Part shown: piece after piece, positions 1,654 through 55,700 of the stretch
Position numbering within the stretch: the stretch's first letter is position 1
How the letters are laid out: every line of letters begins with the position of its first letter
Source of the DNA: Fistulifera solaris
Lineage: Eukaryota
Reading direction: 5' to 3'
Length of the DNA stretch: 64,000 bases
Assembly (NCBI GenBank): GCA_030295235.1
Contig: AP026144.1
Span: 310,001 to 374,000, forward strand
Translations under genes and position numbers: made by a program
The notes under the pieces: model-generated
Seen by the model: only the letters and a program-made list of their open reading frames with translations
Database searches by the model: none
What the model was told of the DNA's origin: nothing

Positions 1654-2472
1654 GTTGCCGGCGCTAGTTTACTATGAATGAATCGGCGTTTTGAAAAGGA
1701 CGAAATGATGAATGTCAATCTCCCAAAATTGTGAAGTGAATGCTTCTGATTGTGTCCGTCGGAATAGGAATAATTGAAACCACTTTGAACTGCACATGCA
1801 AAGTGATCAACAAAGGTGTTTGTGAGATGGTTTGTTTCTCAAAGCTTCGTTTGCTTACTAGTTGGCGAATCAATATTTGCAGTCGTACCTGGTAGTTTTT
1901 TGATGTATGCGCCTCAATGGCAAGGATACCTTCTACCTTCCTCACCGCGGCCGCCGGGGGTATCTTTCATCTTTCTCTCTCTCTCGTTGGAGGAGAACCC
2001 ATTTCGGTCGACGGACTATAATGTTGAAAGTACACTACAGGAGTGAGTCAGTCGAAAACATCCTTCGGCAGCGCCCAAGTACTTTTTCTAACTATACACT
2101 GAGTCAGTTCCGACACGGGGCTCGGAATTCCCTGCCGATGCCGTCAGCTTCGGGAACATGCGTACGTCATTTCGAAGAAACGAAGGTTGTGGTACTATCT
2201 CGAATACAGTGAGGACCGTCATTGCCAACGTCATTACCACGTCACCAAGAAAGCGAAAGGATGCGGCTGCAATTCATTCACGGTTGATGCATCATGGGTC
2301 CCTTTTATGACATCATCGGAGGATTCATCAAGTTGAAGTTTACGAGCGGTCTGTCTCTCTTCGACATCCTCGTCAGGACAAACGCGACGATCCTTGGCTT
2401 CATTCACATTCTCTCTTCCTTGTCAAGTAGAGAAGCACCAATTCACTCTCAAACGACAATTTGCATCTCTAC

Positions 2473-2520
<48 letters not shown>
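2473..2520. repeat. (AGCA)12 tetranucleotide microsatellite in the chlM 5' leader
   Basis: Perfect repeat ending 2 bp before the ATG at 2523. Confidence 0.95.
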
Positions 2521-2521
<1 letters not shown>

Positions 2522-2522
2522 C

Positions 2523-3299
2523 ATGAGAGTTATTCTAGCATTCAGTCTTTTCTACAGCGTCGCCGCGTTCGTTCCGTCACAACGGTCGGCTTTTGGTGTC
2601 ACACACTTGGCATCGACGACACAAGACGACAAAACCGAAGTCCGTGAGTATTTCAACACGGAAGGTTTCAATCGATGGAATAAGATATATTCTGATTCCG
2701 ACGATGTCAATAAAGTACAGCTCGATATTCGCAACGGGCACGACCAAACCATTCAAAAAATTTTGAATTGGTTGCAAGCGGATGGCACCGTGCAACAACA
2801 GACTTTCTGCGATTGCGGGTGCGGTGTTGGTAGTCTCGCCATTCCCCTGGCACAAATGGGAGCCAAGAAAGTGTCCGCGAGTGATATTTCCGATGCCATG
2901 GCGAATGAAGCCAAACGCCGCGCACAAGCCTTGGGGATTCGGAATGCCGAATTTTACACGTCCGACCTGGAGTCGGTCACGGGCCAATACGACACAGTGA
3001 CATGTGTCGATGTCGCCATTCATTATCCGGATGAAAAAATGGTTGAAATGATTGAACATTTGTGCAGTTTGTCCAAGGACCGTGTCATGATCAGTTTTGC
3101 GCCCAAGACGTGGTACTATGTCTTTTTGAAGAAAATTGGTGAATTGTTTCCTGGACCCAGCAAGACCACACGAGCGTATTTGCACGAAGAATCGATCATT
3201 CGTGATGCGTTGACCAAATGCGGCTTCGCAGTGCAAAGAGAAGAAATGACAGCGACGAACTTTTACTTTTCGCGACTGCTCGAAGCAAAGCGAGTCTAA
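2523..3299 (+). CDS. chlM: Mg-protoporphyrin IX O-methyltransferase, plastid-targeted
   Basis: Motifs DDKTEVREYFNTEGFNRWNKIY, CDCGCGVGSLAIPLA, VAIHYP and FPGPSKTTRAYLH. Signal peptide followed by VAA-FVP, an ASAFAP-type bipartite presequence. Confidence 0.95.
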   Translation: MRVILAFSLFYSVAAFVPSQRSAFGVTHLASTTQDDKTEVREYFNTEGFNRWNKIYSDSDDVNKVQLDIRNGHDQTIQKILNWLQADGTVQQQTFCDCGCGVGSLAIPLAQMGAKKVSASDISDAMANEAKRRAQALGIRNAEFYTSDLESVTGQYDTVTCVDVAIHYPDEKMVEMIEHLCSLSKDRVMISFAPKTWYYVFLKKIGELFPGPSKTTRAYLHEESIIRDALTKCGFAVQREEMTATNFYFSRLLEAKRV

Positions 3300-4899: not shown

Positions 4900-5924
4900 A
4901 TGAGTGACTTTCAATCCGAAGCAAGCGATTTGCTTCCATCGATATCTTCCAATGTCGCAGGCGAGCCGTCACGTACTGTCAAACAGCAACCCCAACGTAA
5001 GGAAATGTTGTTATAGCCTTTTTCGCTTCGGTCGCTTATTCTCACACAAACGTACTTTTTCCTTCTCTCTAGCCGAATCGATGCTCAAAAGTTTTCTGGC
5101 GGGCGGTGTGGGTGGTGTTTGCGTCGTCCTCGTTGGACATCCCCTCGATTTGATCAAAGTGCGCATGCAAACGGGTGTCGGAGGATCGGTCCTGGGCATG
5201 TTTGCCGATACTTTCCGACAACAGGGTATTCGGGGGTTGTATCGCGGTGTTTCGGCTCCGTTGATTGGTGTCAGTCCCATCTTTGCGTTGAGTTTCTGGG
5301 GTTACGATGTCGGACAGAGATTCGTGCGATGGTCGACGGGTCATGAAGGAGAATTGACTTTGACACACAAATGTATTGCCGGTGGGCTTTCGGCCATTCC
5401 CACTACCATTGTCATGGCTCCTGTCGAGAGAATTAAATGTTTGTTGCAGACCAGCTCGGCGGGACAATACAGGGGTTTTTCCGATTGCGCCGCGTCGGTG
5501 TATCGATCGGGTGGTGTGACCAGTTTGTACCGTGGAACGATATTGACTCTATTGCGAGATGGGCCCGGCAGTGTGGCTTGGTTTGGCATGTACGAATTCA
5601 CGAAAAAAGCCATGATGCAGGCGCAAGGCATGGAGGATACGTCCCAGTTGTCCCCCATTGCCGTCTTGACGGCCGGAGGTTTAGCCGGTATTGCCAATTG
5701 GTCCATTGCCATTCCACCCGATGTACTGAAAAGTCGTTTTCAATCGGCTCCTGATGGTACTTATAAGAACATTGCCGACGTGTACCGTCAATTGGTACAG
5801 AAGGAAGGTCACGGTGCATTGTTTGCGGGTCTCCGACCGGCCATGTTGAGAGCTTTCCCCGCGAATGCGGCTTTGTTTCATGGGAATGGAAGTCGCACGA
5901 AAGGCTCTCAGTTTTATGGACTAA
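4900..5924 (+). CDS. Mitochondrial carrier, carnitine/acylcarnitine translocase-like (SLC25A20 type); intron 4997-5072
   Basis: Three PxD/ExxK motifs (GHPLDLIKVRMQ, APVERIKCLLQ, IPPDVLKSRFQ) and RAFPANAA. Removing one extra T near 5873 restores the C-terminus ACFMGMEVARKALSFMD*. Confidence 0.9.
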
Positions 5925-6154
5925 CAAATTGAAGTAGATCGAATGAATGAGACGATGAAACATACAAATCATCAATAAAGAGGACCACCTTTGAAAAGCC
6001 GTTCACTCCGTAGCATCCGCATCCGTATTGTGAACGGTCGATATCATACAAAATGGGATCGACATAAAATGAGAAAATGAATTTGATCTAGAACGTAGGA
6101 AACGTTTTTGTCCTTTTATGCAACAGCAAGCTGCTAGTGTAGTGTCGATATTTC

Positions 6155-30953: not shown

Positions 30954-31549
30954 CTTGGCAATAAGAGAGCGAAAAAGAAAGAGGAATGTATTCTTTCAGT
31001 GAGAAAGAAAGGATCCGCAGGTTTTGGAAGGGTGTCAACAGCACGGGTACGTGAAAAACACGGAAGTGACCCTTTCGACCGCGTAGAATGACTCGATAAG
31101 GGAGCCGGTCATAGTCATTCGAAGAGAGAACGCTGAAGAAACCGAAAAGATCCGCTGTCTTCAAGCTGTGGTTGGGGTTGCTCGTTGCTCCAGCTGCTAG
31201 CTGCTGCGCTGCGCTGCATGCTGCTGTTGTGCGCGGCGCGGTCTGTTCGACGTTCGATTTCGACGAACAGCGAGCAGCGTCTGGAAAATGCCCGATCCAG
31301 TTGTTCTGTGTTCCACAATCATTCGTTGCGATTTTTATAGAACTGCATGAAAACGCGATGTCTGCTGAGTATGGTACATATTGTATATTGTTGTCTCATC
31401 ATATGCAAACGAATAACGAATACACAATGTATATAGCCCCTCAAGCCTGATAATTAGACTTCACGATATTTTATTCAAGCCACTGTTTTTTAATGTTGAA
31501 TGTTTAATGGACCCGTTTATGCAATAGGACATCACGGTGATAGTCATAG

Positions 31550-31788
31550 CAAGTTTCCCTTGTCGTTAGGGCTTTACTTACGAGGATAAAGATATCTGAG
31601 AAAGATAAGAATGCAATAGATGCTAAAGCTCGTAAGGTCGTAAAAAACGTCTTAGAGTAATTGTGCGTTAAAGGCTAGCAGCAAGGTGTTGAAGAGGAAA
31701 CCCCGAAGGGACGAAAACCTCTCGGACGTGGTGAGGGAATATGCCGTACCACGACAGACATACCCGAATAGACCGCATATTTTACTTG
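31550..31788 (-). repeat. 3' LTR (239 bp)
   Basis: Identical to 37987-38224 except for one extra C in a C-run. Preceded in element sense by the purine tract GAGGGGAC (31796-31789). Confidence 0.95.
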
Positions 31789-31895
31789 GTCCCCTCAAAT
31801 CGTTCATCATCCCGTGTTGGACGATTTGTTATTCACCTCACGCCAGTTATCGTTAATAGTACGCAATATCTCCGAAGAGAGTATCACGCGTATAC

Positions 31896-34800
31896 TTACT
31901 TAATCGCCGTAAACGTGTCGGCTAGATTCTTGTGCGTAGGAATCCATATGACTTCGATGATCCCAGCCGCCACATGCCATCGTGTTAGGTGGTAAGCGAC
32001 TGAGTTGTGCTTCTTAGATAGCGTCGATGAAAACTGGGAAGAGTTCAATACCACCGAGTTGTTGTCGCAAAAGATCTTACTCGGCTCATCGTCTAACGGT
32101 ACCCCCATCATCCGTAACTTATATCGTAAACCAACAATCATCTCGATGCATGTCTTCATAGCAATAAATTCACTCGCGAATGCACTGGACTCAACTGTCG
32201 ACTGTTTCTTACTAAACCACATCGTCAACGCTCGGTTGACGAAGATCTGAATTCCAGTGTGCGACTGCCGTGTAACCTGATTACGCGCATGCGATGCATC
32301 GACATATGCAGATATGACCACAGACTTACCCCGTGGCTTCGGCATTCGTGGCGGCAACTCTTCCTTTGGCGTCTCTATAATGTTCTTTGAAGTCATCCGC
32401 CTGCCTCGTCATCTGCATTAATTCGAATTTCGGCAACTCCGGTGACATGTAGAGAGAGAACCAGTTCTTTTTTAATAAACGCGAAGATACGATAGACCTC
32501 CTGTAAATGATTCCACCTCGGCATCGCTTGAAAGGATGACAATAGTGAGACCTCGAGCAATATATCGATTCGCCCCAAGTTCCGTTGCCCATCGCGAAGA
32601 TGCCGATCAACTCTTGGAAGTGAGTGATCTCCTCTTCATCAAGCAAACGTGAGTCGTCGAGTTCAAACACAATATTACTGTTTGTCGGGTGTACTTAGCG
32701 CATTTGGTAGTTTCAATTTCTTTTCGTCCAATTGTCTTTCCAAATTTTCAACCGCCGCTTTTAAATATTCGTCGCTCGTCACAGACCATCGGGGGAACGC
32801 CGTCCAATGTGCGTTGTTTTAATGTCGCCCGAGGTACATATCTGGTTCCTTTATCTCATCGTTCTTAAACTGGAAGCTCTGACCCAATTCCTTTAACACC
32901 TTAACCGGGTCATCACTGATGCACATAATGTCGTCAACATAGCAAAGAATATATTCGTAGTATTCATCGCCATTGCCTTTCACTGCTGGTCGCATCCAAA
33001 CGTCGGGGTCCACCACACAAGGCGCGAATCCCATCTCTTCCAACTTCGTAGCGAGGTAGGCACGGAAGGAAGCCCCTGCACCACGCAAGCCATAAAGCGC
33101 CCGAACCACCAGCATCCAGAGTCCCTCTTCACTTCCAAACTCCGGACCGGCCTTTATGTAAACTTTCTCTCGGTTCGCGCGTGAGATACGCGTTTTGAAT
33201 ATCAACACACATCACTTTAATTCCATTAAGAGCCGCGAAGTAATAAACAAATGCGAACAGAGTCGCGAGACACAACAGAACTGTACGAAATCGTTGGCGG
33301 TGTCTCTACCTTGTGGCCATCGGCAACAAATCGCGCTTTTCGCCGGAAGCCTTCAGCTCAATTTGACATCGAAGATAATATGACAAGTGATCTGTTCGTA
33401 GCCAATGAGGTCTTCTAATCGCCCGTTGTAGACTTCGAACGCCCACGCCGCGTTTTTCATCTCTTTCCGTATCGCATCGTACCAGTAAGTATTGCCATTT
33501 TCTTTGTCAAGTTGCAACGCCTCTTTCATCGTCTTAGGAATTCGGATGCCGTACTTGTGAGTTCGTTCCCAATACTTTGTTTTGAGCTTTGATAAGATTC
33601 GGTCCCTCTTCTTTAACACATGCTTGTACCAATATGCAAATGCCGGCATCTCCTGCAACTCATGCTTCACTGCATATTCAGCCAGCTCGACCGGATCATT
33701 ATTCTTTAAATCTTTCAATGCTATCCAATCTGAAGAGCCGTCCTTCCATTGCACCAGTATTTCCCACCCTTTTGTCGTGATAATACGTCGTCGAGTTTCC
33801 GTCCCCGTCGTTATCCACCCTTTCTCTTTCGGGGTACCGCTTCGTCGGTCGTTCGGTGGTCGAGGATTTCGTCTAACTCACGGCTGCCATAGCCGTTATC
33901 ATCGACCTGGGATAAAATATTTTGTGCAATGGTGTTAGCAGTAAACGCCACTAGCGCCGTCAATGTACTCTACCACGTATTGGCTGGTATCGAGGGAGTG
34001 GGTTATCGTCCGGTGTCCCAAGCGGTTTGCCGTCTTCATCGGTTGCCCTTTTGACCACTCTTGCTGCTACCAATTTGCCGTCAGCGGTTTCGTTTTAAGC
34101 TAAGTCTCATATCAACATATGAGTCGTCGTTTGGTCCCATCAAATCGTCGGATCCGTGCGGCACAGCTGGTCGTCAATCACTCGTTGGAACTCGTCGAGA
34201 AAGGCTTGACTTTCCCATTCCAGCACTCCCAAACACAAGTCGTCCGGGTATGTCGTTCGGTACCTCGAGTGGCGTTTCGTCGCCAAGCCGTTCCTTCAGC
34301 TTGCATTCATAGTCGGCCATCCGTGTCTTCCACTCGTCCGTCTGCATCTCGAGCCGCGTTAACCGTTGGACTGTTGTGACTGAAATAGGGATGCCAGACT
34401 CCGGTAGGACCCAATATGCCATTAAGTTACCAACACGGTGTGAGACCCCTAGCCAGCGCCCCAGACTGTTTTCACCCAGTCCGGGCGTTGCTGCGATAAA
34501 CAACATAATCATAGAAGCCGAAGTCAGTATACTCACTGATGTCGGGCGTCTCGCCCGTGAGACATTCCAACGGGCGTCCGCCCATCGGAATACTTCGATG
34601 AGTTCACAGTTAGATTGCCGATCTCTGACACCCACTTAAGGCCGTAGTCCCAAAGCCGTCGTGGCACATTACGCTTATGCATGGCTCGGTAAAGTTTCAT
34701 CTTTAGCTGTCCGATTCCCTGCTCCACCGGGTTCTGGTTCGGTCGATCCTTTTCTGTTACGTGGGATAGGATATCATAGCGTCGCATCATTTGCTGAAAA

Positions 34801-37578
34801 CGCGTGTTAGCTCGCACTTGGGCCGCTGCACCATCATGTACTAGCCATTCAGGTGCGCCAAACTCATGACAGAAGGAATGCAATGAGTTACCAATTGAAT
34901 CACCCGTCTTATCCTTCATCGGGTATACTGCGGACAAGCCACCTTTCTTCCAATATACCTGGGGCGTACTTCATTCCTGTCAAGGACTTAACATCGGCAT
35001 GCAATGTGTCAGTGGACACTTTACCTTTTATGTGAGGTACGATATAGCGTCGGTCGGCACGATAGCGCCCGAGCGAGTGGTAAGATTGCCGATCGAGTGC
35101 CGCGTTGCTTCGTGGCCCGTAAAGTTGCTTCCGCTTGCTTCTCTCCTATGTTCCATTGCTCACTTAAATGTATTGGTGTCACCTTTGGATGTCGTTCAGA
35201 TGATTCGAATGTGCGTCGTGCGGGAAGGTCTTGAATCCAAGTCTCGGTTCCGGCGCTGAAGTCCCCTCAAATTCGGTCCCCTCAGGCCGAGCCAGCGAGT
35301 CAAACGTCAGTGGATGAAACACGGATCTCTTCATCTGCTGTGACACTGACAGAAGCGATAGCATGTTCTTTAAGAGCGACGAGGGCTGGAGAAACGTCAA
35401 ACAAGCCGGGCTCCTGTACAATATCAAAGTGCAAAGATGAGGTACGAGACAAAAGGAACATCTGGTTGCAGCGTAACGTCGCGTGGGTTCCATTCGTTTT
35501 CGTTTGTGAGATGCAAGTGGCGGCAGGTATCCAGTTCGTTTTGTGTTGGCGTGCGAGAGAAGAACTGGATCTTTGTGCCGCTAGATTCAAGTGGAACCAC
35601 CAAGTCATCTATTTGCAAAGTCAAACGGTCTTCTGATGGATCAAATGGGTTGTCGTTCACCATAACACCGTTATAACGTAGCTGATTCGGATTCCAAAGT
35701 GTATGGGGAAGCTTAGAGCCGTAATACAAGCACTCGTTCAGAACCAGGATGACTGTTTCACCAGTAACCGGATTTGTCCACGCCGTCGCGGCCGAAACAA
35801 TTGGCACGCCTCGCACCGGTTCGTATGATGCGTCATACGGATAAACATTGGCAGTGCGGTTAGTATAAGAAAGAACAACAAAGTTCTTACCGGCGCAACA
35901 CGTGTCGGCATTGGAATCACATTCATTGGCTGCCGATACACCGGGTTGCGGTATAGCACTACGCGTCGCCTGCACTGATCTGTCGTTGGCAGTGGAACGA
36001 GTCGATTGGAAATAAGAGATAGAACGATTGCCACGTATCATCGCCCTGTTCATTTCGTCCACCATGAACTGTACCAACGGGATCGGTGTTAGTTTGCGCA
36101 ACTGTAATCGTGAAACCTGCATTTGGAGATTGAGAAGCAGCGCCAGTCAATGCCGAGATCAACGTCAGCGGCGTCCATTTGCTGGTTGTTTGTGTTAGTC
36201 GCATGGATAGAACGGTTGTTCTGTCGCTGCGCTTTATATGCTGCTCGGGCGTCAGCGGATCTTCTGCCAATCGTGGGGCTGCATCTGCCGGATCTCATCG
36301 TCTGAAAAGTCATAAGATGGATGGACGTTCAACTTGTTACCATTTTTCAAAGTAATCGTATACTCGTCGTTGCGGTTGCGTGTCCCACGTCCTTTCCTAT
36401 TTTTGAATCTCGCATTTTTACCTTTAGCTTTGTGAGCGTTCTTTTCGTTGTTCTTCTGCGTTGTTGCTGACCTGATGTTGCGATTGGAAACACCTCCGGG
36501 TTTCACATGCTGTTGAACAATTTGACGGGTTAGGGCAAGAGCCTGTTCAAAGCTCATGTCAGGAACTGGCTTCGAAAGGTTAGCCATGATCATGGCATTC
36601 GTCAGCGACAAGAGGCTGGTAAGAGCCCGTCTTCTTCACCAACAGCTTCGTCATGTCTGTGTCGGAGTAACGGACGATACCATCTCCTGCGTTGGAGTTG
36701 AGAACATGAAAAGCAGTCACTAACTCTTGCTCAAATTTCGTCCAAGTGTAGCCCGCTTTTTCTCCTGCGAAGAAAGAACCATCGATGGCGCGCTCCGCGT
36801 CAAGCAACTCAACGCGGTATACGCCCGTGCCTTCATACGTCGCCTTTAATGCTGCCCAATCCGTGCGGCCGCAAGCTTTTGCCGCATGGGTGCTTACCGT
36901 TGCTTCCGCCTTTGTATTACCTGCAATAAAGCTGGCAATATAGGTGTGAACCTGTAACGTATCCGCTTTAAACTGCGGACCATCAAGAGGAGCAGCCATG
37001 ACGTAACGGTCGAGCGCGCGCTCAGGACCGAGAGTCACATCATAAGTGGGCTGCTCCATGTCACGAATGACATAGGACAAAGGAATGCCCATCGCGTTAG
37101 GAACCTGGCGCAGGAAGTTAACCACCAACGGCCGCCCAGCCCCGTGTCGCTCGACTTGAGCGGGTTCGGCTTGGCAGCCGTCGCGAGTGATCTTCGCATT
37201 TGCGATGAAAGCTGCACGTACTCCAACCAACTCGATAAGTTCCGGCGCCGCCTGCACAGGGAACACCGTCGTTGCCGGATCGAAGCCGCAGATTTCGCAC
37301 TCCTTCGCCCATGCAATGAACGCCTTCATGCAGTTGCGTGCGCGAGGAGGGACGCGAAATGGCTGCTCAGGAATCTGAGCGAGTTCGGCGAGCTCCTTCT
37401 CCAACTGCTCGAACTTAATGTTGCAAGCCTGGCGAAAGGAGTCACCAAAAATCTCCAACGCGATGAAGCGAGCAGGAGTAACCATGTTCGCATCAACAGG
37501 AGGGGCGTTTGGGATGCCACAGAGGGCCATGATCTGGGTCACGGTCTGGGGAATGGCGTCGGGAGGCAACTGTTCCAT
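31896..37578 (-). CDS. Retrotransposon gag-pol polyprotein, fragmented by many frameshifts in this assembly
   Basis: gag from MEQLPPD (37578). Protease ECDSNADTCC near 35920. Integrase LVHDGA...PNQNPVEQGIGQLK at ~34700-34900. RT RALYGLRGAG and LCYVDD at ~32930-33110. RNase H YVDASHA, SEFIAMK, CDNNSV, NLADTFT at 31896-32330. Confidence 0.92.
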
Positions 37579-37969
37579 GGTATCCTGAAATAATAAATAG
37601 ATAAATGAGTTCGTTAGTCGTTTTCGTAATCGTGTTTCGTCACGATCCATTTTGTGTGAGCATCGCATCCGGCGTAATGCATACAACACAAGAGAGAGAT
37701 AAATACTTCTCCTTTACTTCGTTTCAAGCGGCTTTTTATGGCCAGCTTCGGACAGCGCATTCTGACCGGCGTCATTGCCGGTTCGTCCCGACCGTCTTGA
37801 CCATTCCGTTGGTCTGTGACTCGCAAAGCATGCACAACGGCATGTGCTCAAGTATCGAAATACCGGTCACTTTGCACCTCTATCGGTAGATGCAACGATC
37901 GGCACATGCCAGATCGCCGTCGTCGTTTTCGTTTTTCTTTTTCGTTTCGTTGTGCTGCCGCTCCGCGGT

Positions 37970-37986
37970 GGCTGGGTCTGATAAAC
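37970..37986 (-). other. Candidate primer-binding site
   Basis: (G)GTTTATCAGACCCAGC directly follows the 5' LTR and loosely resembles internal tRNA-iMet-type copia PBSs (GGTTATGGGCCCAG). Confidence 0.4.
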
Positions 37987-38224
37987 CAAGTTTCCCTTGT
38001 CGTTAGGGCTTTACTTACGAGGATAAAGATATCTGAGAAAGATAAGAATGCAATAGATGCTAAAGCTCGTAAGGTCGTAAAAAACGTCTTAGAGTAATTG
38101 TGCGTTAAAGGCTAGCAGCAAGGTGTTGAAGAGGAAACCCGAAGGGACGAAAACCTCTCGGACGTGGTGAGGGAATATGCCGTACCACGACAGACATACC
38201 CGAATAGACCGCATATTTTACTTG
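37987..38224 (-). repeat. 5' LTR (238 bp)
   Basis: Direct repeat of 31550-31788 with termini CAAGT...ACTTG. Confidence 0.95.
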
Positions 38225-38923
38225 ATAGATCATGAATCATGAATCATGAGTCCTGACGACGACACGGGGACCAGTTGACCTGTTGACGTTCTTTGCCGTG
38301 TCTTTGTGTCAACCAATCCGTGGTTTGCAAGCTCTGATAATAAACACGACACGAGGACACTAAATATATATTATTCCTAATTTCCTAACGTCAGATTGTA
38401 ATCTTGACATTCGACTGAATTTTCCATTTTTCATCTAATGCATTTGCAAATTTCTAGCCAAAACAACCATTTAAGATCGTTGAAGGGCAAGTTAGCTTAT
38501 AAAATCTCAAAGAACCATTACTTCTGTGGTCTTGCTTCTCAAGAAGCTTACCAAAACGAATCGCGTTGCGCGGGTCCCGAATGAAATTTTCCAGTCCCGA
38601 GGCATTGTTTCTTTCGCCTCACTTTTCACGACACTCTCGTCCACTGATTTCCTTCGAAGATTTCAATGCCAGTTCATGACGAATGACTGCGCGAGACAAC
38701 CCCATGTATTCGTATTTCTGTAGGCTTGGACTCCGAAGACTTTTCATACTTAAGGACTCTGCTTTGAACCGGACTGAAACGTTTGAAAGCCGCACCGCGC
38801 TGGTCCGACGACGAGACAAGACAAACACAACACACAACAAACCAAAATAGCAGAGGACAATTAACATCATTTGTGGTCTTGTTCTTACTTTTTAATAACC
38901 CCAAAAGCAACAAGTAATCAAGT

Positions 38924-42999: not shown

Positions 43000-44162
43000 T
43001 TAGCGAGATCTTTGAGAGGACGATCCTTTGTACTTTTGATGAATTTGGTAAAACAAGACGCCAAACACCACGGCGGCCCCGATTCCGGCCTTGAGGGCAA
43101 TCACGTGACCAAAGAGTAAGGCCGACAAGGAAATCGAAAACATTTGCCGCGTCGTCATAATTACGGTGAAAGCTATCGGCCCAAACTCTTTAATGGTGTA
43201 AAAGATAAATAACTGTCCCGTAGCGGAAGTGATGGCGGTAATAATGTTGTATCGCAGAGCCACCGGGTTGGCTTGCAAGAATTCAAAGACGATCGGTAAG
43301 TCTCCCGACACGAGCAATCCGGCTGTGGTAATACAAATCGCCGAAGTATTCACTCCCAACATCATTTGATACGGATCGACATTCGCTTTTCCGTAATCCT
43401 TGTAAATGCGGGACTGCCATTGGGATGTAAACGAATCAAACGAAATGTAGCACAGTAGGAACAGCAATCCTAGAAACTCCGTGTTGGTGTCGGTTTTGGC
43501 GTCCTTACTATAGAGAGAAAAGATGGCAACACCCGAGGTAATCAAGAAGGCTTCCACGTACTGCGACCAGGGATATAAAGATCCCTGTAAAACTTTTCCC
43601 ATGATCATGACAGGAATAATCTTGGATGATTTGAAGACTGTTTGCACGGGAAAGGAAACATACTTGAGTGACGCATACTGCGACCAGGAACTCAACGTAT
43701 TCGAAAGCGCGCACGGAGTGAACGCTAGTAACGGTGCTGCATTGTTCGCAAAGAAGGCACCGTGCTTCACTTGACTGCCACTAAAGCCACCAAGACGGCC
43801 AAGAACCGGTTCGAAAAGACACAAAAGGCGGCCGAAGGGAATTTGCCCGAAGGAACCCGTGCGGTTGGTTGAAACTTGGTGGTCATAATCAGTTCCTGCA
43901 TGTAACCCCAGATCAAATAGGAAGCCTGTAATCCGCCGAAACAAAAGGCAAATTTGACCGCCGAAGCCCAAAACGCCGCGTGTGCTTCCTTGGTCGGACG
44001 GCGATCTGAATCTACATCGACGCCGGTTTTTCGAAGACTACAAGCACGAATTGCACGTTGTGAACAACAGCTTTTGTCAAGAAAAAGAACACGCAACGGA
44101 AACACGTACCTTTCCGTCTCTTCGACTCGTACCGGTGATTTACCGGGTCGTTTGATTGGCAT
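43000..44162 (-). CDS. PAPS transporter / UAA-family nucleotide-sugar transporter (SLC35B2-like); intron near 44109-44040, frameshift near 43775, start uncertain
   Basis: GLQASYLIWGYMQE, FCVFSNRF, SNTLSSWSQYASLKYVSFPVQTVFKSSKIIPVM, FDSFTSQWQ, GQLFIFYTIKEFGP and IMTTRQ. Confidence 0.9.
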
Positions 44163-49739: not shown

Positions 49740-52700
49740 ATGGATCCGGCGTTCAATCGTCCTTGGCGGGATGACAACGATAAACTACCTTCTCGTTATG
49801 GTCGATCGCGCTCGAAAGAGGATGTAGAGCAAAGCAATAGTGACTTTAAAAGCAATCGCAGAGCAGGATTTGTGAACGAAGCCGTGGTGGATGGTGTTGA
49901 ATCTTCTTTTCTAGCTCGTTCTCTGGGGACAGTTCTCGGGAGAAAAAATCTTCAACATCACGAAGAAAAGAGAAAGAGTTGCAAGAAGACAGAAAAATGA
50001 GAGTGTCCTCCCGGAAGGATCGTGATGATGATTTCGAAAGAAGGCACTCTTTGAAACGACGAAATTCAGACAAGAAATCACGATCGTCGACACAGGCAGA
50101 GGCAAAGATGTATGCTGAAAAGACGTCTCTTCCGGGCCTTGGTCGGTCACACAAAAACTACGATGGCTCAACGAATCTTGCAAATCGTGAAGAGCGCAGA
50201 CGGCATCGTAGTTCTGGAGGTGGAAGTCGCCAAGACCTGTGGTCCGATCCGCCTCCAAAGTCACGCGCCGAAGCTATTTCACATAGAGTTTCGTCGGAAG
50301 GTCGAAGCAGTCGCAATCCAATTCAAACCGAGGTAGACTTAGAACCATATCGCCAACAATCTCAGCTTCATGTACGTGATCGGACTTCATCAAAGGTATC
50401 TGAGACGGCTGATTCACTTCGAAACATGAATCTAGATATGTATTCCGAGGTGAATCGACCAAAAGCCATGGAAGTGGGATCCGATCGCACAACAGCGGAA
50501 ACATCTCGCGAACTTCGCACTCGCCGTCTATTGGAGCAGCAACGAGAACGTCGGAATTCAAAGCAGAGCCATGAGCAAATCGATACTTCGATACTAAACC
50601 CAAGCCCCACGCATTTTCCTGCGAGCTCGCCTGCGGTAGAGAAATACTTGTCACGAAAGAATATGATGGATGATATACAGTGCCGCTCGGGGATAGGCCG
50701 TTCCGGCAGCGGCTCCGATGATGATGAGAAGCTTCAATCTTTGCGGAGATCATCTTCCTTAACGAAAGCTTCACCGCGAGATTTTTTTGATGGCGGCTCG
50801 TTCTTCGCAAAAGGCTACGTCTACTACAGATTCGAATATGCAAAACACACAAAAAGCACCATCCTCTGGAAATGGATCTCCCGCAAATATTGTGAGAAGT
50901 TTTCAAGAGGCTAATGATGAAATCAATAAGACACTAAGTTCGGCGGTGAAAGGCTGGTCTACTTTTAACAGCCGACTTCGGCGTGCGGTCTCCCCAACCC
51001 GGGGCATTGTGACGCCTCTCTCCAAAGTGGATCAGTATTTAGCGAACCGGCACCAACAGAAACAGCAAACAGTGGACGAAAGTAAAACCAGCCAATTCAT
51101 TCGCGTTCCAAGCTTTGATACAGATGCGTATTTAGATGGGCTGCAGCAGTCTTCAGAGAGCGGCGAAGATGAGGAAGAAGAGGAAAAGGCTTTTATTGAA
51201 AGTTCAGATGATGAAGTGAAAGATGCAGCCGCTTGGAGTGTCCGTGTCTGCGTTATTTCTGCTGTGGATTTGCCCGCTAGTGTCATTCCTTCTCTGCCTC
51301 TTAGTCCTGTATTAAAACTCGGGTTGGTGTCTATCCCTGGAACTCAAGATAAGAAAGCCGGTCATCTTGAATTGTCAAAGAAAGTGGATATTGAAGGACT
51401 GGCTTCGTTTCCGAGGACAAAGATACGGTGCACCAGTTCCAGAGCCTTGTCACAGCGAGACAATGGCTCTGCTGAATTCTCACGAGGAGATGCGATGGGA
51501 CAACGTTCGACGACCTCATCAAATGGCGCTGGCTGTCGAACTTGCGTCTCGGGCTGTTTTGACGCCAGCGAATTCTCGTGAAAGTCCCGCTCACGTTGAT
51601 ACTTTGTCGTCAGGGCGTCCTGCAGGTCCTGGTACTGCTCTTCGTTTCGGTGCTATGTTCCGCAAGCAACAGAAGAAAGGTTCTAACACTGAGATGGAAC
51701 AAGCCAACGCAGCAGCTGCTCTCGCCAAACTTCTTGTCGAGGAGAATGCTCCTGCAGTGACATCATCAGGAGGCGAGCAATCGACTGAATCACAGGAACG
51801 TGGGCCGTTGTTCGACTCGCACTCATCGGTTATGCGGAGTTTAGCAGCAAATCAGAATGAGGTTGACGTTCAACTCAATCCTCGTAAACTCCAGCGAAGG
51901 CGCACGCGGGTTACAGAGGATTTAAGACTGGGATCTAGAATTATACCACTGGAAAGCCTAGACATACGGCAGGCTATTAAATCCGGATCCGTGCGTGTAG
52001 AACAGTGGATCGAGCTAGACGCGAGTCTGGACACAAACGCGCCGGATTTAGGTAGCCCGCGGCAAAGTTCGGCGAGCAAGCGAAGTCCAAGCGTACTACT
52101 GGAAGTAACTGTTGCGAGAAGAGAGGTCCTCAATGATAGTGAGGATGAAATGGAACAGGAAGAGACAGAAGCAGCTTCAATACGCCGCTCATACTCAAAA
52201 CGCGCGTCCCTTATAGTAAAAAAATCAGCTAAAACGTGAAGCCCCTGTAGCGCAGGTAAAATCTTTGGACGACCCTATACTGGAACCAGGAATTATTGAT
52301 TTTGCCTGTGTCATGGGCGCACGCGACATCGGTGACCAAAAATCAGATGATGGTGGTAGAGGATGGGTGAATTCGAATCCTGAATGCATTATCTTGGATC
52401 GCTTTCCTGCTACGGATGCTTTTCACCAAGATAGGGGACGCAAAGCTACCTTAGCGGAAAAAAATAGAATGGTTTTGTTTTCCCGAGGGAATTAGATTGT
52501 GGCGAGGTACAACTCCTCCAAATGCGGAAGAAATGAATTTGAAGCGCTTCTCTGCTTTGTCGCCTGGATCTATGTCGTCCTCTACAGCTCTTTTCGACGC
52601 CCATCTCGGATGCACTACATCATTCTCATGGTTCGTTATTGCATCAAACTCAGATGAGTATGGTTCAGAACTTGTAAAAACATATGGTGCTGTCATTCGC

Positions 52701-55700
52701 TTTTATGTCCCCGCCCCGATCGGCATAGATCCAAAGCAAGATGATTTTGCCCAATTTATAACAGACGATAAATATCAGCAATCAGATTTTGTTGAGAGAA
52801 AGCGTCTTTGGGTTCCCCTGGCAATTTGCTTGACGTCGAGTCTGCCCATCGTCGGAATAATGGAAGCGATGCTATTGCGTCTCTGTGATGCTTTGTCTAT
52901 CAGTGGCATCCCCGAGGATCTTTCATCATCTGGCATAATGAAAGAGATCGCGCAGGTTGTTGTAAATTTTCACAGACCAATTCAAGGTGTGGTGAACTGT
53001 TCTATACCATTTCTCTCCGGAGACCCATTTCACGTAGCGCTTCCACCAAGCCAAGGTTTGCCTTCGTTGCCACACGGGAATGCAATATCGACGGTTTGCC
53101 GCCTGCTTGGAGCAGATGGTCTCACCACTTTATTAGCTGCTTTGTTAACTGAAAGCAAAATCCTGTTGCACTCAGATGATGTTGCTAATCTTTGTTTGGT
53201 CGCTGAGGTAGTCACTGCGTTGATTTACCCCTTCCAGTGGTCTCTACCTTATGTACCTGTTCTGCCAGCTGCGATGATGGAGTTTATCGAGGCCCCAATG
53301 CCCTATTTGCTTGGAATCCCATCGTGCAACATGAAGCACATTGATCCAAGTGTTTTGGAGGACGTTGTCGTTGTAAATATAGACCAAGGCTTAGGTGACA
53401 TTTTTGAGAGCGAGCAGGGTAGAAATCAGATGTATAAATCACCAACACCACTTCCACTCCCTGTCACCATCAGTATTGAAAGAGCAGTAAGCAAAGTGGT
53501 TCGAGCAGGCGAGGATGCAGAAGCACCGAATGGCAACAGTCGCGTGACTGGGGTCCAAACTTTTCCGCGGATGGAACCGGAAAGCGCCATCGAAAGAGAG
53601 TTTCGACTTTCTATTGCGATTGACATTTGCGGTCTTACACGGGGATTGGAAGAATGTTTAGTCTATGCCTCGTCTTCCCAGCCGGTCTTTAATGTCGACA
53701 AGTTCTTGCAAATTGCGCCTGCAATGTTCGAAGAACAGCGTGGCTATAGCTCTAAGCTTCACTTCCGGGGAGAGCCATCTACTCAAAAAGTTGTTTCGCC
53801 AATGTCAAGGAAATTTATGTCCACTTTTGTCAACTGCCAACATTTTCACCAGTTCCTTGAATTAGTCAACGACGACCGCCTTGCTTTATTTCACGATATC
53901 ATGGAAGTTTGGAAAGCAGGAAGGTCGCAAAAGGACACTCTCTTCCAGCCACTTGACTACGATACTGTTGTTTCCCGTTTGTCGAAAACCTTGAAGAAAC
54001 GCGAGGATAAAATACCGACTTTTCGTATTTTGAAAAATATAGATGATAAAATTGAATTGGAGCCGAAGTCAGGAACCAAACGTTTTCCATTCGATTTGTT
54101 ACATCACCTTGTTGTCGACGATGCGTCTGCGAATGACGATAACCTCCCTTTGTCGGACGGCGTCAAACAGGTATCCGTTGCGTACCTAGTCGAATTGGAA
54201 AAAAATCCTTGGCGCTACCGTTCGCTTTTCAGCATAGACATTGAAGATCCAGTGGTGGCCAGGACACTTTTTATTTCGGAGAAAATTAAGCTGCGAGACG
54301 CAATTGGTGAGCGCCGTTTCCAGGCATGGCAGATGTCGAAAGAAGACGATAGTTTTAGCATGCTTTCAGAAGAGCCAGGAAATGCCTTTTCCTCTGAACC
54401 GCTCGATCTTAAAAGTCTTCTACAATACGCCGACTCATCGATTGAAAAATGTATTGCCACATCTGAACACAGTCAGAAGAGAAATGTCGTTGATGATGCC
54501 AAGAGCAGAGACGCTATTCGCCGATGCCTTCAAGATCTCGCTGCTTCCACTGGATCCGAGCATAAGATTCCCAATGAGAGTCTTGTAAAGCAGGCAGAAG
54601 ATGCTATGCGTAACCTTTCTGCTAAAAACTTCTTTCTTAACGTCTTGAGCCAGCGAAAGGGCTCGGATAGCCAGAGAGTGGACTTTAACACAAGACGCCG
54701 CACGACAGTGTTCAATACTGTGTCCTTGTCGTCAAAAGTAGAAAATGAAGCATTTGATATTCTGGTGAGGTTGGGGTGCGCTATACTTAATGACTGTGCA
54801 CAGGGCCGAGACTTTGAAACTGCTGCAGCCCTTTTGAAGCTCACTGCTGGCTTATATACATCAGTCGCGTCGAAAGAAGGCGAAAACGCAGTTGTTTATA
54901 TGACATCTCGTATAGGAGGCCACCATGTGTATGCAGAACTTGGCGTTTGGGAGTCAGTGATGAGATCTCATCTGACTGCTCGTCACGAAACGTTAAAAGA
55001 AGACAAAGCTTCGTCAGAAGAAAGTAGTGATGTTGAGGGTGGATGAGTATGAGGCAACCATTTCAACGCTATACGAAATGGTTGCGTATGGTATACCGGC
55101 AGAAGAACTAGCAAGATTTTCTTTTGGAAAAGCCAGAAAAATGGTTGGTTCAAGAGCGAGAAAGGAATGTCGCTCCTCCTACTATCAAAGAGACTGAGTG
55201 GCCGCCGGGAACAGGGCGTGACGACCTCAAGTAGTGCTACCATCAGCGATATCGATTCTTTGGGCTTATCAAAAACATTCATGGACGAACCTGTTCAAGG
55301 TCACGACTCCCAGGATAGTCCGCTCCACTGGATGGAAACAGGATGGTGCCATCCGGCCGCAAAATCTGCTCGACGACTGGGCGCTTCGGACACACACGTC
55401 AATGCCAAACGACAAGGGACACAGAATATTCTTAACCTGCTTGACGAGCAGCAAAGTTCGCAGCGGCATGAAAAGCGCATAAAGCGATCAGCTGTCACTG
55501 CTATGTCGTATGTTGGCTCGTCCGTGGTTGCAACGGGTGGGCTCGATGGTGGTGTTTTTCTTGCTCGTAGAGTTCGTACAGATCGTAAAAGTCGTACCAC
55601 AGACAAGGGCCAGCAAGACGAGAAGTGGGATACTTGCCTTGTGAGGGGGATGCATCTTGACTGGGGAAGTTCAGGTAGTCGCTTCGCCTCTGTCGGTTCT

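Follow-up and report, generated by a model that had tools for sequence, protein, structure and literature searches.

Evidence for a diatom Copia lineage with long terminal repeats that do not end in TG...CA, based on an element of Fistulifera solaris

A Copia element with CAAGT...ACTTG ends

In the current study, we analyzed a stretch of 64,000 nucleotides (hereafter, the window) of the diatom Fistulifera solaris (contig AP026144.1, positions 310,001 to 374,000), which carries a long terminal repeat (LTR) retrotransposon of the Copia type with a total size of 6,675 bp. The LTRs of retrotransposons usually end in TG...CA, although this is not obligatory. The element in the window lacks these canonical 5'-TG...CA-3' ends: on the plus strand both of its LTRs start with CAAGT and finish with ACTTG, and because the terminal five bases form an inverted repeat, the same ends are read on the minus strand, which is the coding strand of the element. 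An earlier note on this DNA had described these ends as reversed LTR termini combined with an unusual target-site duplication (TSD) of 4 bp, and had attributed them to a lineage with an altered integrase end specificity.

The two LTRs are direct repeats with an identity of 99.58% over 239 columns, their sole difference being one indel (CCCC versus CCC near position 31702). The bases adjoining the two copies are not the same (upstream, g in one and c in the other; downstream, g and a) and the similarity ends precisely there, so the LTR edges are exact and no outward shift is possible. The tetranucleotide ATAG lies at both outer edges, and since the bases beyond it mismatch (c/a on the left, a/g on the right), the TSD is exactly 4 bp. 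Shifting either edge by a single base leaves flanks that are no longer direct repeats. By simple chance, a flank match of 4 bp would occur once in 256 cases and a terminal inverted repeat of 5 bp once in 1024. The repeat alignment bears out what the earlier note had read from the letters, i.e., the same five terminal bases on both LTRs with divergence right outside them, and a duplicated ATAG that is lost on a one-base shift. The closest internal TG and CA lie about 11-13 nt from the LTR edges and are not usable as alternative ends. Neither a second copy nor a solo LTR of the element was detected in the window.

Internal organization and coding state

The anatomy of the element was mapped by stop-to-stop open frames and by tblastn against the pol of an intact relative, L032 (Table 1). 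The order on the minus strand is gag, protease (PR), integrase (IN), chromodomain, reverse transcriptase (RT) and RNase H (RH), collinear with intact relatives. A primer-binding site (PBS) follows the 5' LTR and a polypurine tract (PPT) precedes the 3' LTR, completing with the two LTRs and the TSD the set of features of an LTR retrotransposon. Integrase lies upstream of RT in L032 (PR-IN-RT-RH), the order of Ty1/copia elements, and the pol of the window is collinear with it. These features, together with a match to RVT_2, agree with the earlier assignment to a Copia-order LTR retrotransposon. The Pfam RVT_2 match in the window (positions 32819-33211, E 2.6e-6) reaches 27.6 bits, under the cut-off of 31.6 bits, and the same family scores 72.3 bits in L032 (pol residues 901-1108) and 82.3 bits in L001, another intact relative. 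The precomputed family PF07727 is found on most of the homologues listed. Residues 370-830 of the L032 pol have a retroviral-type integrase fold according to Foldseek, with matches to prototype foamy virus (PFV) and Rous sarcoma virus (RSV) intasome chains at E values down to 2.7e-10.

The segment of L032 homologous to the chromodomain-like module (L032 4053-4340) was modeled with a pLDDT of 88, and its best Foldseek matches in the PDB were nearly all chromo or chromoshadow domains, at weak E values of 0.1-1 and TM-scores by target of 0.6-0.72. Pfam rve and Chromo were detected neither in the window fragments nor in the intact relatives, and a profile search of PDB sequences for the chromodomain gave only RHINO (E 0.81), hence nothing usable. 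No Pfam family matched the gag remnant, and a CCHC knuckle (C-x2-C-x4-H-x4-C) was absent from the gag proteins of eight out of eight relatives and from each of the window element's three sense frames.

At least six frame changes are seen in the map of pol (31896-37713, minus strand), and no open frame of the element exceeds 377 aa; we therefore regard the window copy as dead. Considering its LTRs, we conclude that it is a recent insertion of a coding-defective copy. Near-identical LTRs around a broken pol may reflect either a defective RNA mobilised in trans or some indels that are assembly errors. A search of sequencing runs returned one run, the wetland metagenome X1 (share 0.15), in which, at 85% likeness, both the element and its flanks have a relative of 90-95%. 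Of the single-base differences between the window and the X1 relatives, only a part falls in short homopolymers.

In all eight intact relatives, gag and pol lie in one frame with a single TGA between them, followed by CT in seven of the eight (Table 1). Judged from the reading frames, this arrangement suggests programmed readthrough of the stop codon, a feature unusual for Copia elements.

Table 1. Features of the window element, of neighboring host genes and of the gag-pol junction in intact relatives (window positions, except for the TGA rows, which give positions in the relatives).
Feature	Position	Strand	Observation
TSD, left copy, ATAG	31546..31549	.	identical 4 bases at both outer LTR edges
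3' LTR (element sense), 239 nt	31550..31788	-	sense: CAAGT at PPT side, ACTTG at flank side; 99.58% to other LTR
PPT	31789..31796	-	sense GAGGGGAC; adjoins 3' LTR start; GGGAC-type context also in relatives
RNase H region of pol	31902..32366	-	tblastn to L032 pol residues 1255-1408, 52% identity
RT region, broken by frame changes and stops	32471..33600	-	RVT_2 match; L032 map
Chromodomain-like module, IN-RT interval	33665..33777	-	motif WEILVQWKDGS...W..LKD; fold of L032 homologous segment
Integrase region, several frames	33996..35212	-	L032 map; fold of L032 homologue
Protease region	35469..36029	-	DSNADT and VPIV motifs; 42% identity to L032 pol residues 30-216
Gag remnant	36580..37713	-	longest open frame of element (377 aa); no CCHC knuckle
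PBS	37973..37986	-	sense GTTTATCAGACCCA; adjoins 5' LTR end; same motif in 12 related loci (10 families)
5' LTR (element sense), 238 nt	37987..38224	-	pairs with 3' LTR
TSD, right copy, ATAG	38225..38228	.	matches left copy
Mg-protoporphyrin IX methyltransferase	2337-3299	+	host gene
Mitochondrial carrier	4904-5932	+	host gene
UAA-family sugar transporter	43000-44037	-	host gene
DENN-domain protein	52455-55046	+	host gene
gag-pol TGA, L001	2135-2137		
gag-pol TGA, L032	1818-1820		
gag-pol TGA, L010	4919-4921		
gag-pol TGA, L011	4300-4302		
gag-pol TGA, L014	5616-5618		
gag-pol TGA, L005	4259-4261		
gag-pol TGA, L008	5684-5686		
gag-pol TGA, L003	5168-5170		

Genomic context

The host genes around the element (Table 1), among them the methyltransferase gene of the chlorophyll pathway, indicate the compact nuclear genome of a photosynthetic eukaryote. 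Directly after the right TSD, the short repeat ATCATGA occurs in three units (38229-38249). Two contigs of X1 join position 31174 or 31376 to position 38560, leaving out the element together with about 0.5 kb of flank, and this junction is probably the empty site in a related organism.

End pattern in related families

Metagenome contigs were scanned with a 174-aa IN-RT fragment as a query. The scan matched 107 stretches, 60 of which, in 59 loci, encode a relative, with protein identities to the query of 34-74% (mostly 48-61%). The PBS core was sought in all 59 loci, and the motif GTTTATCAG(N)ACCCA was found directly 3' of an LTR in 12 of them; these represent ten families, as two pairs of loci have identical LTRs (L002 = L036 and L003 = L007). 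Upstream of the LTR start, GGGAC is present in all ten families except L032, which has GGAGAC. The LTR starts with CGAGT in nine of the ten families and with CGAAT in L001. It ends in ACTTG in five families (L003, L004, L008, L010, L014), in ACTCG in L001 and L002, in ACACG in L011, and in ACTTT in L005 and L032, the 3' LTR end of the latter being seen against an unrelated real flank (ACTTT followed by caatc). TG...CA ends are thereby absent from all 11 families (the window element and the ten related ones), the first LTR base being C in 11/11 and the last base G in nine and T in two.

This survey of relatives had been proposed in the earlier note, and its outcome supports the part of the claim that the ends are truly not TG...CA, and that the 3' ends by which the lineage integrates would be other than CA, with a target stagger of 4 bp. 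The idea of reversed termini did not hold: the relatives have CG...TG, CG...CG and CG...TT ends, with no mirror of TG/CA. The conserved terminal signal is C-R-A-G-T...A-C-T-Y-G, with an AGT/ACT core. Since the window element is one instance of this consensus, its exact "reversal" is a coincidence. Judging from the compared LTR edges, C...G (or C...T) ends are a trait of the lineage, which is looser than the exact form seen in the window.

Most contigs of the relatives are circular permutations with a single LTR, as indicated by terminal overlaps. In L002, L008, L010, L011, L014 and L036, the contigs are 6.3-6.8 kb long, with terminal overlaps of 123-247 nt and one internal LTR. Such contigs may be either collapsed assemblies of multiple copies or 1-LTR circles.

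A second sub-lineage consists of L015, L023, L025, L028, L031, L033 (= L035), L040, L046 and L050. A GGGAC-type context also precedes its LTR start, and CAAGTT follows GAGGGGAC in 11 of 12 LTR rows, L040 having T as the first base. The start edge is seen against a non-PPT flank in two rows (L033 at 2988 and L025 at 5334). At the other side, six rows from five distinct loci extend into the flank, and in these the LTR similarity stops 0-3 bases beyond ...TTAACATT. L033 was considered as a complete element with an LTR ending in ...ACTATTA, and this was rejected, as the comparison with other copies shows that its 5' LTR is truncated; L033 therefore provides neither a 3' edge nor a TSD.

A maximum-likelihood tree with a midpoint root was built from 38 rows of the IN-RT segment (the window, metagenome loci and five database proteins). 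In it, the window element groups with P0001 (94%) and a protein of Fistulifera solaris (support 100/99). The midpoint root separates the window element from the metagenome families that have its PBS and end pattern, and because the pattern is shared across this root, it is considered old within the lineage. The second sub-lineage forms one starred clade nested among the PBS-sharing families, and hence its 3' end would have changed later.

The named protein relatives are all diatoms, i.e., Fistulifera solaris (the closest, 80%), Fragilaria crotonensis, Attheya and Cylindrotheca. In total, 600 database proteins were matched at E 1e-10 or better, and none of the best 120 carries the name of Phaeodactylum tricornutum or Thalassiosira pseudonana. 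A search of the protein-cluster Atlas with gag returned unnamed clusters only, one of them with a few Bacillariophyta members. A scan of other genome contigs gave three loci (L060-L062), none with an LTR; L062 is a match of 48 residues to the chromodomain only, with nothing like the PPT, LTR or PBS of the lineage downstream. These fragments lie in contigs binned as bacterial metagenome-assembled genomes (Sphingobacteriaceae, Bacteroidota and Pseudomonadota), most likely as binning contamination. No relatives were detected in the scan of viral contigs.

Primer-binding site

The PBS occurs once in the window. TGG is present at the LTR/PBS junction in six of the 11 families and absent in five, and an intact tRNA 3' end is thus not required. 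A scan of the window and of 19 loci revealed no tRNA gene. The PBS was considered both as complementary to an anticodon stem-loop and as pairing with a tRNA 3' end that leaves a bulge of two bases, and neither reading fits all families. The ATCAGA core of the PBS motif presumably also occurs in the initiator-tRNA PBS of plant copia elements.

Interpretation of the ends and of integration

Based on these results, we consider it very likely that the window element is a recently inserted copy, defective in its coding region, of a diatom Ty1/copia element of the CoDi-A kind, nearest to CoDi3 and CoDi4 in its features, and a member of a lineage with ends other than TG...CA. We propose that the LTR edge facing the PPT is set at ...GGGAC/CRAGT and the one facing the PBS at ACTYG/GTTTATCAG. 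As the LTR edges of the lineage lie at CRAGT and ACTYG, the integrase would join a 3' end ...ACTYG-OH (with G in most families and T in two) instead of ...CA-OH, cutting the target with a stagger of 4 bp. In the window copy, both ends happen to be ACTTG, giving rise to the tidy CA...TG appearance. The broken copy may have been moved in trans by an intact relative, and the end preference of the integrase may have changed or become relaxed. The "altered integrase end specificity" suggested earlier would be a reasonable reading of the LTR edges. The edges, TSD, PPT, PBS and domain order of the element, and the same end pattern in its relatives, are observed; the way in which the cDNA ends are made is proposed, as either blunt or trimmed from ACCAAGT...ACTTGGT.

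Several points weigh against this interpretation. Both flanks and a TSD are seen in the window copy alone, and the tally of copies and solo LTRs covers the 64-kb window rather than the whole genome. The edges of most relatives are read from their PPT and PBS context, not from flanks. Owing to the frame changes, the window copy has no integrase of its own, and the enzyme that inserted it is therefore not visible here. The empty site in X1 is only roughly defined ("between: not known"), at a resolution coarser than a single ATAG, and the placement among the CoDi groups is by shared features, not by a tree with reference CoDi sequences.

Regarding the cDNA, blunt joining of the G end is a proposition toward and away from which we lean equally. 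A less favored, still tentative alternative is that the cDNA carries two extra bases per end (ACCAAGT...ACTTGGT, a 7-bp inverted repeat), with the integrase removing GT from both 3' ends ahead of the joining step. In 11/11 families, the LTR is preceded by AC and followed by GT, so that the inverted repeat reaches 7 bp (ACCRAGT...ACTYGGT), the layout expected if two bases were trimmed per 3' end, as in retroviruses and Ty3. However, these bases also terminate the PPT (AC) and open the PBS (GT), so both may be conserved for priming alone, and the trimming model is purely inferential. Patterns of 2-LTR or unintegrated junctions in the loci gave only chance matches inside coding sequence. A broader and somewhat more doubtful version would be an environmentally abundant diatom Copia clade that has left the CA rule, with AGT/ACT read at positions 3-5, G or T joined, a cDNA ending in the 7-bp repeat, and retrovirus-like trimming of GT. 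If true, a Copia lineage would combine a retrovirus-like processing step with a joining end other than CA.

Another explanation is that a CoDi family with precisely these annotated ends has been described before and includes the element, in which case nothing would be new. Maumus 2009 (PMC2806351), in the parts concerned with LTR termini, gives TG/CA for 23 of 26 CoDi families and its absence in CoDi3.2, CoDi4.2 and CoDi4.3, and CoDi3/4 elements also resemble the window element in size, in their short LTRs and in having a 4-bp TSD. Against this, tables S10/S11 of PMC8147415 list no CA..TG or CG..TG, as every motif other than TGCA in them is T-initial (TATA, TACA, TGTA, TTCG, TGAG, TGGA, TGAT), and the two diatom species named above do not appear among the best 120 protein matches. 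We thus find this explanation improbable. Finally, the view that this is a canonical TG...CA element with misread edges, or with terminal bases mutated after insertion in one copy, draws on there being a single copy with both flanks, and has next to no credibility given that both LTRs have the same ends and different outer neighbors, that the 4-bp TSD fits these edges only, that the closest TG/CA lies well inside the LTR, and that the same pattern stands beside the PPT and PBS of relatives with 48-61% protein identity.

Significance

Few features of integration by retroviruses and LTR retrotransposons are as conserved as the CA-3' end, on which annotation tools rely. Neither a 4-bp TSD nor the lack of TG/CA is in itself a novelty, both being in keeping with the CoDi3/4 section of the Copia elements of diatoms. 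The novel feature is the C...G (or C...T) end, which runs across the lineage and has a conserved AGT/ACT core. The loss of TG/CA itself had been reported in three families by the 2009 CoDi survey. Our results show a wider departure from the CA rule among the CoDi elements of diatoms than would be expected from the T-initial variants published so far, with at least 11 families having C...G or C...T ends. LTR finders limited to TGCA, as had been anticipated, and also those limited to the seven T-initial plant motifs would drop the element, and intact elements in diatom genomes would be under-counted by them. In addition, the lineage offers natural pairs of integrases and ends, with which it can be asked which residues read the terminal bases, making end recognition by the integrase a testable question.

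Comparison with known systems

The lineage can be compared with several groups of elements. The chromodomain fold, the gag without CCHC, the size of 6.7 kb, the short LTRs and the 4-bp TSD point to the CoDi-A or CoDi3-4 group. The clade CoDi-A includes CoDi2.4, CoDi3.1, CoDi4.1 and CoDi4.3, and its markers, in the account given by the relevant part of Llorens 2009 (PMC2774666), are a chromodomain after the integrase, the lack of a CCHC array and the PR motif LPIV. Like CoDi-A, the window element has a chromodomain after the integrase (here by fold likeness, with weak E values), no CCHC array in gag, a protease immediately followed by the integrase, and VPIV as its PR motif, which is near LPIV; this likeness is one of traits, not of phylogeny.

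With CoDi3 and CoDi4 (e.g., T. pseudonana CoDi4.5 and P. tricornutum CoDi4.2/4.3), the lineage shares diatom hosts, the order PR-IN-RT-RH and the 4-bp TSD. The sizes are also comparable, i.e., 6.3-7.7 kb in CoDi3/CoDi4 versus 6,675 bp here, with LTRs of 238/239 bp. T. pseudonana CoDi4.5 measures 6.5-6.7 kb (6.7 kb in the closest comparison) with LTRs of 235-236 bp, and has a 4-bp TSD in 6/6 rows (PMC8147415). In P. tricornutum, 24 of the 26 rows for CoDi3/4 have a TSD (2 being "not found"), which is 4 bp in 21 of the 24 (PMC8147415, tables S10/S11), and the TSD of Blackbeard is given as TTCC in the section of Maumus 2009 (PMC2806351) on that element. The 4-bp TSD is hence not the anomaly that the earlier note had taken it for. 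The published non-canonical ends of these groups are T-initial (TATA, TACA, TGTA and TTCG for P. tricornutum CoDi3/4; PMC8147415), unlike those of the window lineage, which are C-initial and mostly G-terminal. Our literature search for non-TGCA ends in diatoms found no paper, and a 2025 preprint on diatom transposable elements has no passage on termini.

Among plant Copia elements, Tos17 (TG..GA), AtRE1 (TA..TA) and TARE1 (TA..CA) also have short LTRs and non-canonical ends and have been overlooked by motif finders. The LTR_retriever preprint (10.1101/137141) treats these three and seven non-canonical plant motifs, in which the first T is invariable, and Rosaceae Copia subfamilies with TGTT/AACA ends are mentioned in a portion of PMC5659011. 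The window lineage differs from the plant motifs in having C as its first base in every family.

Priming other than by an intact tRNA 3' end, which a PBS without need for TGG would fit, recalls Drosophila copia and yeast Ty5, for which half-tRNA priming is described in a section of PMC5371799. As in Ty1 and in retroviruses and Ty3, the integrase has a DDE fold and cleavage at the PPT and PBS would set the ends of the cDNA. 3' processing is needed by retroviruses and Ty3 and not by Ty1, which joins blunt CA ends, as stated in the part of PMC8487063 on end processing. Unlike in all of these, the terminal base joined in the diatom lineage would be G (or T) and not the A of CA.

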